Of a DNA stretch of 64,000 nt, positions 26,241-31,501 are shown piece after piece. The translations under genes and the position numbers were made by a program. The notes under the pieces were generated by a model. The model did no database searches, was not told the DNA's origin, and saw only the letters and a list, made by a program, of their open reading frames with translations. The DNA comes from an uncultured Veillonellaceae bacterium (lineage in GTDB: Bacteria > Bacillota > Negativicutes > JARBTT01): NCBI GenBank assembly GCA_963805085.1, contig CAWDTA010000005.1, positions 384,001 through 448,000 of the forward strand. The letters are read 5' to 3'. Numbering within the stretch: position 1 is the stretch's first letter; the number at the start of each line of letters is the position of its first letter.

Positions 26241-26271
26241 TTGACTTGGAGTCAACTCCAAGTTGTACAAT
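26241..26271 (+). promoter_or_regulatory. MerR-type promoter/operator 3 (lar-AKR operon)
   Basis: TTGACT-tggagtcaactccaagttg-TACAAT; dyad ACTTGGAGT-ca-ACTCCAAGT. Confidence 0.9.
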
Positions 26272-26409
26272 GAATTTATCAGTAAAAAATTGCTGATTTT
26301 CAAAATAGAGTCTTTTGTATTCCATTTTAAAATAGCTAAAAGGTATTTAACTTAAAGTTAGTTACGAAGAATAAAGGTGAATAAAAATTATGATATGGAG
26401 AATTCAATA

Positions 26410-27681
26410 ATGAAAGTGTTATATTATGATTGTTTTTGTGGCATCAGCGGCGATATGAATCTAGGTGCATTGCTGGATTTGGGAGTGGATGAAGACTACC
26501 TAAGGCAGGAGTTGTCTAAGCTCAATCTGGATGTTGAATATGAGCTGCAGGTAAAAAAGGATAATAAAAGTGGAATAAGCGGAACTAGAGTGGATGTAGT
26601 CTTAAAAAACGCAATGCATGTTCATAAGCATGAACATGACCACCATGATAATGACCATCATCATGAAGAACCGACTGGAATGGAGTCTGACACTTTGCAT
26701 ACGCATCATGCGCATAGAAATTTTAAGGATATTGAAAATATAATAGTAAACAGTACTTTAAGTGATCGGGTAAAGAAGTTAAGCTTGGATATTTTTATGA
26801 AGGTAGCAGAAGCAGAAGCAAAGGTTCATGGAAAACCTCTATATGAAGTGCATTTCCATGAGGTTGGGGCCGTTGACTCAATTGTTGATATTGTGGGAGC
26901 TGCTGTGTGTTTAGATTATTTAAAGGTGGATAAGATTATGGCTTCATCGGTTCAAGTAGGCGGAGGGTTTGTAAAATGTGCGCATGGTATCATTCCAATT
27001 CCTGCTCCGGCAACTGTTGAAATTTTAAAAAACATTCCTATGAAATCAGGTATAGTGCAGTTTGAAACGACTACTCCTACCGGGGCGGCGATATTAGCGG
27101 CAAATGTAGGCTCATTTACAGACCACATGGACTTTACCGTAGAAAAGATTGGCTATGGAATAGGTCATAGAGATCTTGAGATTCCTAATGTTTTAAGGCT
27201 ATATCTTGGCTATAAAGATAGAAACGATAAAAAAGAAGAGCAATATATATTGGAGACCAATATTGATGATATGAATCCAGAACTCTACGGTTATATAGAA
27301 GAAAAACTTTTTAAACAAGGGGCTTTGGATGTATTTAAGACGGCAATTTACATGAAAAAAGGCAGGGCTGCGATAAAGCTCAGTATATTAGTTAATGAGA
27401 AAGAGGAAGAAAACGTACTTGACGTAATTTTCCGTGAGACGACTTCCATAGGTCTTAGAAAATACAAGGTTGAAAAAATTATGTTGTCGAGAGACTTCGT
27501 AAAGATCAGCACACAGTACGGAAATGTAACGGTCAAAAATGCATATTATCAAGGCGAAAAAGTGAAGTATAAACCAGAGTATGAAGATTGCAAACGAATA
27601 GCCAATGAAAAAAACATACCTATTTCCAGAGTATACCAAGAAGTTTATAAAATTATAGGGGACAATGAGAATGATAAATAA
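26410..27681 (+). CDS. larC: Nickel-pincer cofactor nickel insertase
   Basis: GISGDM, His-rich linker, HFHEVGAVDSIVDI, CAHG, ETNIDD, KPEYED. Confidence 0.95.
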   Translation: MKVLYYDCFCGISGDMNLGALLDLGVDEDYLRQELSKLNLDVEYELQVKKDNKSGISGTRVDVVLKNAMHVHKHEHDHHDNDHHHEEPTGMESDTLHTHHAHRNFKDIENIIVNSTLSDRVKKLSLDIFMKVAEAEAKVHGKPLYEVHFHEVGAVDSIVDIVGAAVCLDYLKVDKIMASSVQVGGGFVKCAHGIIPIPAPATVEILKNIPMKSGIVQFETTTPTGAAILAANVGSFTDHMDFTVEKIGYGIGHRDLEIPNVLRLYLGYKDRNDKKEEQYILETNIDDMNPELYGYIEEKLFKQGALDVFKTAIYMKKGRAAIKLSILVNEKEEENVLDVIFRETTSIGLRKYKVEKIMLSRDFVKISTQYGNVTVKNAYYQGEKVKYKPEYEDCKRIANEKNIPISRVYQEVYKIIGDNENDK

Positions 27682-28477
27682 TGAAAAATATCTAAACTTA
27701 ATTAATTCTTTAAAAAATATGGGGAAAGTCATCTTAGCTTTCTCTGGAGGCGTAGACAGTACTTTTTTACTAAAAGTAGCTAAAGAGACATTAGGCAATA
27801 ACGTTAAAGCAGTAACAATACAATCTCCTTATATTCCAAAATGGGAAATTGAAGAAGCAAAACAGTTAGTAGCCGAACTTGGGGTAGAGTTTGAAATCTT
27901 AGAGGCACCTATTATTGATGAAATTAGAAACAACCCTGAAAATAGATGTTATTTATGTAAAACGGCAGTCTTTAGTCAGATAAAAGCAATTGCAAAAAAG
28001 GAAGGGTATCCTTACGTTATTGATGGTACAAATTTTGATGATATTGGTGATTACAGGCCTGGCTTAAAAGCACTGAGTGAACTGAATATAAAAAGTCCTT
28101 TATTAGAGTGTCAATTGACCAAACAAGAAATAAGAAATTTATCTAAAGAGTTAGGACTTGCCACTTGGGATAAACCACCATATGCATGTCTGCTTACAAG
28201 AATACCCTACGGTAATAAACTGAAAGAAGAAGACTTTATCAAGATAGAAAAAGCCGAAAGATATATGATGGAGAGGGGCTTTCGAGCAATTCGTGTGCGG
28301 TGCCATGAAGATTTGGCGAGAATTGAAGTGGATAAAAAGGATAGAAGTAAATTATTTAATGAGGTACTTTTTGACGAAATTTCTGGTAAGTTTAAAGAAT
28401 TTGGCTTTAAGTATGTAACTTTAGATTTAGAAGGATATAGGGTCGGGAGTTTTAATGAGACAATAGAAATTAAATAG
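27665..28477 (+). CDS. larE: Nickel-pincer cofactor sulfur transferase (CxxC..C, Fe-S type)
   Basis: PP-loop SGGVDS, RCYLCK, DYRPG, ACLLTRIPYG. Confidence 0.95.
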   Translation: MRMINNEKYLNLINSLKNMGKVILAFSGGVDSTFLLKVAKETLGNNVKAVTIQSPYIPKWEIEEAKQLVAELGVEFEILEAPIIDEIRNNPENRCYLCKTAVFSQIKAIAKKEGYPYVIDGTNFDDIGDYRPGLKALSELNIKSPLLECQLTKQEIRNLSKELGLATWDKPPYACLLTRIPYGNKLKEEDFIKIEKAERYMMERGFRAIRVRCHEDLARIEVDKKDRSKLFNEVLFDEISGKFKEFGFKYVTLDLEGYRVGSFNETIEIK

Positions 28478-28512
28478 CCCGATCTAATCTCAAAATATTT
28501 CGGGAGGAAATA

Positions 28513-29259: not shown

Positions 29260-29319
29260 GATAACTGATGCCTGTAAAAATGATATCAAAACAAATTAAA
29301 ATAAAAGGGGCCTAAAGAT

Positions 29320-30441
29320 ATGGAAAAGAAAAAATTAGGATTTGGCTTTATGCGTTTACCTTTGAAAAGTAAGAATGATCCAGAAAGTATTGATAAGGAT
29401 GCATTAAATCAAATGGTAGATACTTTTTTGGAAAGAGGGTTTACCTATTTTGATACAGCGTATATGTACCATTCAGGGAAAAGTGAGGCAGCAATAAGAG
29501 AAGCTTTGGTTAAGCGGCATAAAAGAGACAGCTTTACTTTAGCAACAAAATTGCCAACAATGTTTTTAAAAACAAAGCAAGATCAGGAAAGAATATTTAA
29601 CGAACAATTAGAAAAGTGTGGCGTAGAGTACTTCGACTACTATCTGTTACACAACCTTGGTATAACAAATTATGAGACAGCACAGAAGCTTGATAGTTTT
29701 ACCTTTATTCAAAAAAAGAAAAAAGAAGGAAAGATCAGACAGATTGGATTTTCTTTTCATGATACTGCCGAGTTATTAGACGAAATATTAACAGCACATC
29801 CGGAAGCCGAGTTTGTTCAATTACAGATTAATTATCTAGATTGGGACAATGAAAGCATTCAGTCAAGGAAATGCTATGAAGTAGCAAGAAAACATAATAA
29901 ACCGGTTATTGTTATGGAACCTGTCAAAGGTGGTATGCTGGCAAGACTGCCTGAAAAAGCAGAAGAGTTATTAAAAAAATATCATCCAGATATGTCGATA
30001 CCATCATGGGCTATACGTTATGTGACAAGTCATGAGGGCGTCATGATGGTATTAAGTGGGATGTCTGATATAAAGCAGTTACGGGATAATACAGGTTATA
30101 TGCAGGACTTCAAGCCGTTTGTGCAGGAGGAATATGAACTTGTTAAAAATGCAGTTAAGATTATTAACGAGTCTATTGCGATTCAATGTACAGCCTGTCA
30201 GTACTGTGTAGATGACTGTCCAAAAAATATAGCAATTCCGAAGTATTTTGCATTATACAATACAGAAAAACAATCCCCGCCATCCCAATTTTCCATACAA
30301 CGAGTATATTATGACAATTACACAAAAAAGCATGGTAAGGCGTCAGACTGTATCGGATGCAAACAATGTGAAAAAAGCTGCCCACAGCATATTGAGATTA
30401 TAAAACATCTAAAGGATGTAGCTGCTGTTTTTGAAGCATAA
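29320..30441 (+). CDS. Aldo-keto reductase with C-terminal 2x[4Fe-4S] domain
   Basis: [35 protein letters not shown] and [12 protein letters not shown]. Confidence 0.92.
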
Positions 30442-30493
30442 TTTTCTTAGATAGGAGCTAGAAAAATTTTAAGAAGGAAGGCGCAATCGCTAT

Positions 30494-31501
30494 ATGCAGA
30501 CTGTAACACTAGGAAGAACAGGACTGATCGTAAGTAAAAATGGATTTGGAGCACTCCCTATCCAGCGTGTTGAAAAAAAAGATGCTGTGTATTTATTGCA
30601 GAAAGCATTTTATAACGGAATCAATTATTTTGACTCGGCAAGATGGTATTCAGACAGCGAGGAAAAACTTGGTGCAGCCTTTTCTTATACAAGAGATAAG
30701 ATTATTATCAGCACCAAAACGGGAGCGCAGACAGCTGAAGGTTTCTGGAAAGATTTAGAGCAAAGCCTTAACAATCTGCAGTCGGAATATATTGACATCT
30801 ACCAGTTCCATAATCCTGCCTTCTGCCCAAAGCCAGATGATGAATCTGGTCTTTATGAGGCAATGTTAGAGGCAAAGAAACAAGGAAAAATTCGTTTTAT
30901 CGGAATTACAAATCATAGATTATCTGTGGCAAAAGAAGCAATAGCATCGAATTTATATGATACGATGCAGTTTCCATTTTCTTATCTTGCAAGTGATGCA
31001 GATGTAGAAATCGTGGAATCATGTAAGAATAAGAATATGGGATTCATTGCAATGAAAGCTTTATCCGGAGGATTGATTACAGACTCTGCCGTGGCATATG
31101 CATATTTTGCACAATATGAACGTGTTGCTCCAATCTGGGGCATACAGCGTGAAAATGAATTAGATGAATTTTTATCCTATCATGATAATCCGCCAATTTT
31201 GACAGATGGGATGAAAAAACAGATTGAACACGATAGAAAAGAATTATTAGGTGATTTCTGCCGAGGCTGTGGTTATTGTATGCCATGCCCTGCTGGAATT
31301 GAAATCAATAATTGTGCAAGAATGAGCCTTCTCCTACGTCGTGCTCCGCAGGATACGTATCTGTCGAAAGATTGGCAGGAGAAAATGAAGAAAATTGAGA
31401 ATTGTCTTCATTGCAATAAGTGCATGAGCAAATGTCCATATAAACTGAATACGCCAGAACTATTAAACAAGAACTACGAGGACTATAAGAGCTTTTTATA
31501 G
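30494..31501 (+). CDS. Aldo-keto reductase with C-terminal 2x[4Fe-4S] domain
   Basis: GFGALPIQR, YFDSARWY, STK, YQFH; CRGCGYCMPCP and CLHCNKCMSKCP. Confidence 0.92.
   Translation: MQTVTLGRTGLIVSKNGFGALPIQRVEKKDAVYLLQKAFYNGINYFDSARWYSDSEEKLGAAFSYTRDKIIISTKTGAQTAEGFWKDLEQSLNNLQSEYIDIYQFHNPAFCPKPDDESGLYEAMLEAKKQGKIRFIGITNHRLSVAKEAIASNLYDTMQFPFSYLASDADVEIVESCKNKNMGFIAMKALSGGLITDSAVAYAYFAQYERVAPIWGIQRENELDEFLSYHDNPPILTDGMKKQIEHDRKELLGDFCRGCGYCMPCPAGIEINNCARMSLLLRRAPQDTYLSKDWQEKMKKIENCLHCNKCMSKCPYKLNTPELLNKNYEDYKSFL

Follow-up and report, generated by a model that had tools for sequence, protein, structure and literature searches.

Two Fe-S-fused aldo-keto reductases as candidate clients of the nickel-pincer cofactor in a Veillonellaceae genome without LarA

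Which enzyme uses nickel-pincer nucleotide (NPN) within a bacterium that carries a complete set of genes for this cofactor and no gene for its classic client, LarA? The question is raised by a locus in the genome of an uncultured Veillonellaceae bacterium, studied here within a window of 64,000 nucleotides (nt), the whole stretch of DNA that was analysed (contig CAWDTA010000005.1, positions 384,001 to 448,000). In this window, the biosynthetic genes larC, larE and larB are followed by two genes encoding aldo-keto reductases (AKRs), hereafter AKR1 and AKR2, each ending in an iron-sulfur (Fe-S) domain. An earlier description made from the letters of the DNA, called here the sequence-only reading, had proposed that the two AKRs stand in for LarA as clients of NPN. 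The computational analysis reported below leads to a reading of this kind, which we hold with about even confidence: the cofactor would be made for one or both of the Fe-S AKRs, within a module of a carbonyl-stress regulon, and hydride transfer involving aldehydes would take place at the pincer ring.

The five genes are all carried by the + strand, in the same orientation: larC at 26377..27681, larE at 27665..28477, larB at 28513..29259, AKR1 at 29320..30441, and AKR2 at 30494..31501. larC and larE overlap by 17 nt, and the next intervals measure 35 nt (larE-larB), 60 nt (larB-AKR1), and 52 nt (AKR1-AKR2). Open reading frames (ORFs) and family matches thus bear out the co-oriented order larC-larE-larB-AKR-AKR, with gaps of at most 60 nt, given in the sequence-only reading. 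A consensus scan finds no terminator-like site within the larC-AKR2 unit, and a weak terminator-like hairpin is placed 3' of AKR2 (31634..31653, +) by the consensus scan only. The true start of larC is probably the ATG at 26410, which is preceded by GGAG.

LarB, LarC, and LarE each exceed the curated equivalog cut-offs of their NCBIfam models and constitute a complete set for NPN biosynthesis. LarC, the nickel-inserting cyclometallase (PF01969, E 3.1e-155), has its LarC1 and LarC2 parts in one frame, scoring 227 bits (cut-off 90) and 152 bits (cut-off 50), respectively; its gene is single-copy in the genome. LarB, the carboxylase/hydrolase of nicotinic acid adenine dinucleotide, reaches 304 bits (NF033503, cut-off 175). 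LarE reaches 334 bits (TIGR00268, cut-off 150) and is of the CxxC...C type, with a SGGVDS PP-loop, C95-x2-C98 and C175 read from the translation. The same CxxC...C motif characterises LarE of Thermotoga maritima, which is [4Fe-4S]-dependent and non-sacrificial (PMC9283937). Judged by these residues, the LarE of the window matches the same class.

The locus resembles the lactate racemase system of the Lactiplantibacillus plantarum type in that LarB, LarC, and LarE are present above their curated cut-offs. It differs from it in several ways. The window genome is devoid of LarA, LarE is of the CxxC...C cluster type and not of the sacrificial single-Cys type, LarC is encoded in one frame, and both promoter and operator belong to the NmlR type, associated with carbonyl stress. 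The classic lar system has a lactate-related regulator.

The usual clients of NPN were sought in an assembly of 4.21 Mb in 5 contigs, with a marker completeness of 83% and a contamination of 6%. The absence of a larA-like gene noted for the window in the sequence-only reading (no Lar_N domain among the 50 window ORFs scanned) extends to this whole assembly, in which a search for PF09861 (LarA) gives 0 matches; the search control was positive in 2 of 14 control genomes. DUF362 (PF04015), which belongs to the same Pfam clan as the DUF2088 of LarA (PMC11770544), also gives 0 matches in the assembly. Since the genome searched in this way lacks both LarA and DUF362, one or both of the AKRs are the most likely recipients of the cofactor.

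AKRs that use NPN have already been described. NphT (PDB 9YEB; Semersky et al., Nat Chem June 2026; PMC13524815) binds the nickel-pincer mononucleotide covalently via Lys200, with His144 on the nickel, and moves hydride between sugars and aldehydes. In the same paper, mining of LarC neighbourhoods without LarA revealed 427 instances in which PF00248 proteins co-occur. Among lar-associated AKRs, 34% have both the histidine and the lysine, 40% have the histidine alone and none has the lysine alone, the His-only class being one where a non-covalent cofactor is allowed (PMC13524815). NPN-dependent AKRs are known to disproportionate sugars promiscuously, an activity to which no physiological role has been assigned (PMC13524815). 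The paper also has a list of 798 AKRs bearing the motif. Hence, the client role inferred for AKRs in the sequence-only reading is a published concept, and its possible novelty did not survive a check of the literature. What is new here is the fusion of the AKRs to Fe-S domains, their predicted co-transcription with the whole pathway, and an apparent control of the NmlR type. The terms Fe-S, 4Fe-4S, iron-sulfur, ferredoxin, fusion, and fused have 0 occurrences in the main text of PMC13524815, a count that does not extend to its large supplements.

AKR2 (335 amino acids) has a shortened barrel (PF00248, residues 21-197, E 1e-31) followed by a 2x[4Fe-4S] domain (Fer4, residues 255-319). Its best match among solved chains is NphT itself (9yeb_A, E 2.4e-24). 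His144 and Lys200 of NphT align to H141 (in GITNH) and K188 (in AMKAL) of AKR2, and D47, H106, T139, and A20 of AKR2 align to D47, H106, T142, and A20 of NphT. H141, K188, and the catalytic-type tetrad D47-Y52-K75-H106 are invariant in 97/97 orthologues (52-100% identity), as are the eight cluster cysteines, two of which stand at 96/97 owing to a gap.

AKR1 (373 amino acids) has a full-length barrel (PF00248, residues 5-278, E 3.7e-56) and a C-terminal 2x[4Fe-4S] domain (Fer4 dicluster, residues 289-357). It has no match to 9YEB at E 1e-5. In a profile-profile alignment (probability 100), H147 of AKR1 aligns to H141 of AKR2, and an invariant glutamate, E200, aligns to K188. H147 and the tetrad D45, Y50, K77, and H111 are also invariant. 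Because a glutamate occupies the lysine position and the histidine is kept, AKR1 is assigned to the His-only class. In both proteins, the histidine stands where the canonical AKRs used in the alignment have Phe or Ile. Both also end in two CxxCxxCxx(x)CP motifs, all eight cysteines being kept in relatives.

The two AKRs therefore share with NphT the AKR triosephosphate isomerase (TIM) barrel and a location near larBCE in the absence of LarA. AKR2 keeps the nickel-binding histidine and the tethering lysine, and AKR1 fits the "histidine without lysine" class. However, NphT, with about 290 amino acids, has a single domain, whereas both window AKRs add a 2x[4Fe-4S] domain. In addition, the barrel of AKR2 is shortened after about residue 200, and AKR2 has orthologues in genomes without LarB or LarC; cofactor binding at this locus is a prediction. 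In their architecture, PF00248 plus a Fer4 dicluster, the window proteins are similar to uncharacterised AKR-ferredoxin fusions, which we take to be those of COG1453 ("aldo/keto reductase family with a ferredoxin domain"). Such fusions are very common (138/401 genomes of the phylum sample at E <= 1e-50), and no member has a described function.

AlphaFold models of AKR2 and AKR1 have predicted local distance difference test (pLDDT) values of 91.5 and 88.4, respectively. Only NAD(P) AKRs are among the matches listed when the AKR2 model is compared with the PDB using Foldseek. 9YEB is not among them, which may be because the library ends on 2026-04-08, before the paper, and does not speak against the likeness to NphT. 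AKRs with an Fe-S domain are likewise absent among the matches listed by the structure searches with the AKR1 and AKR2 models, in which the barrel is aligned alone, mostly to NAD(P)-dependent AKRs. In the AKR1 model, the sole stretch with a pLDDT below 50 is a KGGMLA loop (residues 203-208) located after an invariant Met-Glu-Pro; this loop adjoins the position of the tethering lysine of NphT.

Transcription of the lar-AKR operon would start from an NmlR-type promoter at 26241..26271 (+), made up of a -35 hexamer TTGACT (26241-26246), a 19-nt spacer and a -10 hexamer TACAAT (26266-26271). A perfect 9+9 inverted repeat, ACTTGGAGT-CA-ACTCCAAGT, is found at 26244-26263 and begins within the -35 hexamer. 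Three further promoters of this type, all on the + strand and with TTGACT and a 19-nt spacer, surround the operon. One, at 24020..24050 (-10 TATGAT, operator at 24023-24042), belongs to the regulator gene. A second NmlR-type promoter, at 24666..24696 (-10 TATGAT), lies before a phosphatase-like gene. The fourth (-10 TATGCT) is part of a stretch at 31710..31898 that also contains a second nmlR paralogue, cut by an in-frame TAG at 31896-31898 after its ATG at 31761.

The operator pattern was searched in the whole 4.2 Mb genome, with up to 3 mismatches allowed and a reversed pattern as control. The copy before larC fits the pattern exactly, and that before the regulator gene fits it with 3 mismatches. 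Five copies are found, vs. 0 with the control, and 4/5 lie in this island, within 8 kb, where they precede the nmlR-like gene, the phosphatase-like gene, larC, and the nmlR pseudogene. The fifth copy (G000 contig C1 355175-355194; L130 1501-1520) adjoins an IS110-family transposase gene and a 79-amino-acid ORF without family match. In the cut nmlR paralogue (31761-32060, +), similarity resumes in frame beyond the TAG stop. From its sequence, this paralogue looks like the remnant of an imported AKR1-AKR2-nmlR cassette, of which intact versions occur at loci L005, L020, and L021 (G and L numbers designate the genomes and loci compared).

The candidate regulator is a MerR-family protein of the NmlR/AdhR type encoded at 24089..24484 on the + strand (PF13411, E 1.4e-14). 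This short protein has no sensor domain and, in particular, no metal-sensor region. Against the NmlR model NF041849, it has an E-value of 2e-41 and a score of 140.7 bits; as this is under the cut-off of 175 bits, the protein is named NmlR-like. It carries a cysteine in the motif FIKCMR, which we take, judging by eye against Cys52 of Bacillus subtilis AdhR, to lie at about the conserved sensing position. The sequence-only reading had placed the operon behind one MerR-type promoter. The promoter type stands, and the regulator gene is found two genes upstream rather than adjacent.

In Haemophilus influenzae, formaldehyde is the signal of HiNmlR, which it reaches via a conserved cysteine (PMC5001606). 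Promoters of the NmlR class have a 19-20-nt spacer and an inverted repeat overlapping the -35 hexamer (PMC5001606). The island is thus similar to NmlR/AdhR regulons in its four promoters, which have 19-nt spacers and the -35 hexamer inside the inverted repeat, as well as in its short regulator. In contrast, the known targets of such regulons are thiol-dependent formaldehyde or alcohol dehydrogenases and esterases, whereas those in the window comprise genes for cofactor synthesis, the two Fe-S AKRs, and a phosphatase-like protein that is exported. A carbonyl-stress regulator that apparently switches on cofactor synthesis and AKRs together points to reactive aldehydes as substrates.

Is the association of lar genes with Fe-S AKRs found elsewhere? 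Beside lar genes, Fe-S AKRs are encountered in at least 11 further genomes or contigs, with various gene orders. In G408, the order is purple acid phosphatase (PAP)-LarC-LarB-AKR1 (80% identity), syntenic with the window and without LarE and AKR2. In G362 (53%) and G257 (51%), the order is AKR1-LarB-LarC, and both genomes are also without LarA. A subfamily of Fe-S AKRs with 35-37% identity is encoded directly upstream of LarC in G410, G428, G355, and G342, and a decayed copy of this arrangement is present in G420. On metagenome contigs, L145 repeats the window's order at 88-96% identity and represents the same lineage, not an independent case. L146 has the order DUF362-polyferredoxin-LarE-LarB-NicO-AKR1, L159 has DUF362-AKR1...LarE-LarB-LarC1-LarC2, and L171 has NmlR-AKR2-AKR1-MBL-LarC-LarE-LarB-NicO-DUF362/Fer4. 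L171 is the sole independent second case of AKR2 beside lar. Altogether, lar-adjacent Fe-S AKRs span at least 5 genome families (as labelled by the classification tool) plus unplaced metagenome contigs, often with one regulator type. We read the adjacency of lar genes and Fe-S AKRs as real functional coupling, though rare overall. Synteny between lar genes and Fe-S AKRs of the AKR1 kind, one of the points raised by the sequence-only reading, therefore recurs in other lineages.

The operator also recurs, with 16 sites in 10/126 loci vs. 0 for the control. It is found before lar-AKR operons in L113, L116, and L119, and in L110 via the phosphatase-like gene. Further sites lie before the stand-alone cassettes of L005, L020, and L021, and before AKR1 in L126. 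Within the stand-alone cassette, 177-259 nt separate AKR1 from the operator upstream of it; the window has larCEB between such a promoter and AKR1.

Several of these operons include DUF362 (L146 1867-8122, L171 5415-14734, L159 3654-9963, L116, and L127 6238-7341). Some of the DUF362 proteins are fused to Fer4. Together with a large polyferredoxin and NicO, DUF362 makes up a broader gene set, "nickel plus Fe-S wire". DUF362 is comparable to the window AKRs in that it co-occurs with lar, NicO, polyferredoxin, and AKR1 in related operons and is in some cases Fer4-fused. It is different in that it is absent from the window genome, has another fold than an AKR and has no described function. At another lar locus (L120 8413-11054, from G342), a GCS2-type glutamate-cysteine-ligase-like gene and an ATP-grasp gene (glutathionylspermidine-synthase-like) are located between LarC and LarB; a LUD-domain gene follows the ATP-grasp gene, and no LarE is seen in the stretch.

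How do these observations compare with the distribution of the AKRs among genomes? The profile was drawn from 400 genomes of the phylum, the window's own genome being excluded; Fisher and binomial tests overstate significance here, as related genomes are not independent. LarC and LarA occur together in 156 genomes, LarC without LarA in 76, LarA without LarC in 60, and neither in 108. For the AKR1 side, part of the profile is consistent with a link to NPN. AKR1 orthologues are found in 21 genomes, 16 of which have LarC. LarC or LarA is present in 20/21 of these genomes vs. 272/379 others (Fisher p 0.02, kin not being independent), and the LarC+ LarA- state in 8/21 vs. 68/379 (Fisher p 0.04, with the same dependence among kin). 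Among class relatives, AKR1 orthologues with at least 75% identity are in LarC+ genomes in 7/7 cases, vs. a background of 23/30. Second-tier AKR2-like proteins (35-40% identity, His and Lys kept) are in LarC+ genomes in 24/29 cases vs. 208/371; counted by genus, the figure is 17/22 (p 0.11), which is not significant.

Other parts of the profile, together with the gene neighbourhoods, weigh against the idea that the AKRs use the cofactor. AKR2 orthologues occur in 17 genomes (52-78% identity, G017 having a partial match at a contig end), and LarC is present in 10/17 of these vs. 222/383 others, an odds ratio of 1.04. In the 7/17 genomes without LarC, the H and K of the AKR2 orthologues are nonetheless invariant, and the closest orthologues (78% and 77%) come from genomes 98% and 96% complete, both without LarC. 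LarB is under its cut-off in 5/5 LarC-less genomes tested, four of them from these seven (G021, G404, G272, and G364) and one additional (G003); the G272 assembly consists of one contig, and that of G003 is a complete chromosome. As to AKR1, LarC is lacking in 5/21 genomes with an orthologue. The AKR1 histidine is retained even in G322, where LarC and LarA are both missing; G272 carries AKR1-NmlR-AKR2 without LarB or LarC, and G432 carries AKR1 (78%)-AKR2 (82%)-NmlR without LarC. Broad AKR1-like matches (E <= 1e-50) are not enriched in LarC (76/137 vs. 156/263). No residue was found that separates lar-adjacent from lar-less AKR1 orthologues, and only 4/80 metagenome loci with AKR1 orthologues hold lar genes (L145, L146, L159, and L171). 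Moreover, the DUF362 of L146, L159, L171, L116, and L127 could be the client there. Finally, the AKR1 barrel (residues 1-283) superposes on NADPH-bound AKRs with a Z of 25, which is evidence on the fold only.

The neighbourhoods of AKR2 point in the same direction. Genes were counted within 9 kb at 80 genome loci with AKR2 orthologues (53-85% identity), and 16 further loci were added. AKR2 is beside a lar cluster in 0/96 genome loci (LarC 0/80, LarB 0/80, further loci 0/16), so that the synteny of lar with AKR2, considered in the sequence-only reading, is not conserved. The AKR1-AKR2-NmlR cassette is present at 3/80 of the AKR2 genome loci. The one LarE-like gene, in L027 (1/80), was rejected as part of a lar cluster because its neighbours are ThiF and Rrf2. 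Clustering of the 356 ORFs that flank AKR2 orthologues gives 252 clusters and no conserved partner.

The significance of a missing LarC is, however, itself to be qualified. Among the 216 genomes with a strong LarA (Lar_N) homologue, 60 are without LarC (LarC-less examples are G021, G272, G404, G364, G265, and G024), so that the absence of LarC is not a clean sign that NPN is not used. LarA homologues are found in 5/7 LarC-less genomes with AKR2 orthologues (binomial p 0.06). Where LarA occurs without LarC, the cofactor may be scavenged from other organisms or made by a pathway yet to be described, or the LarA-like enzymes may work without it. No mention of LarA homologues without LarB was found in PMC11770544.

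These facts leave the client role proposed in the sequence-only reading with support on one side and difficulties on the other. It is favoured by the likeness of AKR2 to NphT, by the absence of LarA and DUF362, and by the recurrence of Fe-S AKRs beside lar. It is disfavoured by the glutamate that AKR1, according to the alignment, has at the position of NphT's tethering lysine, by the orthologues in genomes without LarB or LarC, and by the 0/96 count for AKR2 and lar. The two proteins also pull apart: AKR2 has the full NphT motif and almost no conserved lar association, while AKR1-like proteins have a conserved lar association and no tethering lysine.

The strongest competing explanation, a possible though less probable one, is that the Fe-S AKRs are independent of NPN. 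They would be carbonyl reductases of an NmlR regulon, using NAD(P)H or cluster electrons, and lar would have been drawn under the shared stress promoter to serve another client or role. This would account for the orthologues with unchanged motifs in genomes without LarB or LarC, for the AKR1-AKR2-nmlR cassettes that stand alone in L005, L020, L021, and L085, for the lack of LarC enrichment and of a conserved flanking partner for AKR2 orthologues, and for the canonical AKR fold of AKR1. However, it leaves the lar genes of a genome without LarA and DUF362 with no other candidate client near them. It also has to accommodate the placement of these genes between the NmlR promoter and AKR1, the recurrence of Fe-S AKRs beside lar in several gene orders and the fact that the nearest solved relative of AKR2 is an NPN enzyme whose binding residues are kept. 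Furthermore, in view of established chemistry, a hydride from NAD(P)H would have no obvious route to Fe-S clusters lacking a two-/one-electron mediator.

If the cofactor is instead made for the AKRs, we infer its use, the substrates, and the electron flow at this locus as follows. An NmlR-type regulon, sensing carbonyls or electrophiles through thiol chemistry, would co-express LarB, the [4Fe-4S]-type LarE, and LarC with the two paralogous Fe-S AKRs. In AKR2, the cofactor would be attached to Lys188 through a thioamide, with His141 as the nickel ligand; in AKR1, which is His-only, it would be bound without a covalent link. Proton transfer to or from the carbonyl or alcohol would fall to the Asp-Tyr-Lys-His tetrad, while C4 of the pincer ring would accept or release the hydride. 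As substrates, we would expect reactive aldehydes such as those to which NmlR/AdhR regulators respond. Through the Fe-S domain, the site may be linked to ferredoxin or flavodoxin, or the domain may have another role; what these domains do is entirely our inference. In a tentative and rather unlikely extension of this scheme, NPN would act as a converter between two- and one-electron chemistry, in a flavin-like role, exchanging hydride with the carbonyl and single electrons with the 2x[4Fe-4S] wire, and the enzymes would be ferredoxin- or flavodoxin-linked aldehyde oxidoreductases.

It is improbable that the Fe-S AKR serves the cofactor pathway itself, by delivering electrons to the [4Fe-4S] LarE or for nickel insertion, or by the redox upkeep of the pincer ring. 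The window LarE is indeed of the cluster-dependent type, LarC, LarB, and AKR occur without LarE in the stretches examined of L110, L117, L118, L112, and L119, and polyferredoxin and NicO are found in related operons. Nevertheless, the tetrad is invariant, as is typical of AKRs that turn over a substrate, an adjacent AKR is missing in most of the 233 genomes that bear LarC, with 4 adjacencies among the matches listed, and LarB, LarE, and LarC alone suffice to make NPN in vitro (PMC13524815). Least probable of all is a conventional LarA or DUF362 client whose gene escaped assembly, the AKRs being bystanders: the marker completeness of 83% and contamination of 6% leave some room for it, as does the one same-genus genome searched (G406, 84% complete), which has no match to the window LarC, but the assembly has 4.21 Mb in only 5 contigs, G362 and G257 repeat AKR1 with lar in the absence of LarA, and the operon fusion behind a stress promoter would be left unexplained.

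Other genes of the island and of the window complete this picture. The gene that separates the nmlR-like gene from larC (24815..26152, +) encodes a purple-acid-phosphatase-like metallophosphoesterase (PF00149, PF16656) with a twin-arginine (Tat) signal, SRRKFIK, read from the translation of the window protein. It is kept directly upstream of larC in the relatives G408 and L145; related genes lie at 9319-10668 in L110 and 2487-3821 in L145. A CbiM/NikM-type transporter is encoded elsewhere in the genome, and no NiCoT (PF03824) is found in the genome. Further along the window, the region 45792-53956 (+) contains two CbiK-type chelatase genes, a tetrapyrrole methylase gene, and a Peripla_BP_2/FecCD/ABC transporter; FeoB and flavodoxin genes are nearby (44058-44486, 54418-56307, and 57352-57903). 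A short-chain dehydrogenase ORF of 174 amino acids (13984-14508, +) covers only positions 63-235 of the family profile and is probably truncated at its N-terminus.

For the family, the locus first advises care in genome mining. The His/Lys motif by which nickel-pincer AKRs are nominated does not vary across a large clade of Fe-S AKRs, and the genomes of some members are without LarB or LarC. Either the motif over-predicts nickel-pincer AKRs, or the sharing of the cofactor between organisms is common. The fused Fe-S domains also raise the question of whether the nickel-pincer ring can communicate with one-electron carriers, a question sharpened by the operons with DUF362-Fer4, polyferredoxin, and NicO. 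The locus provides a first physiological hypothesis for the class of NPN-dependent AKRs. If the pincer ring does convert between hydride and single electrons, an NPN-dependent AKR would for the first time have a physiological role, and no nickel-pincer enzyme before it would have been coupled to a chain of electron transfer.

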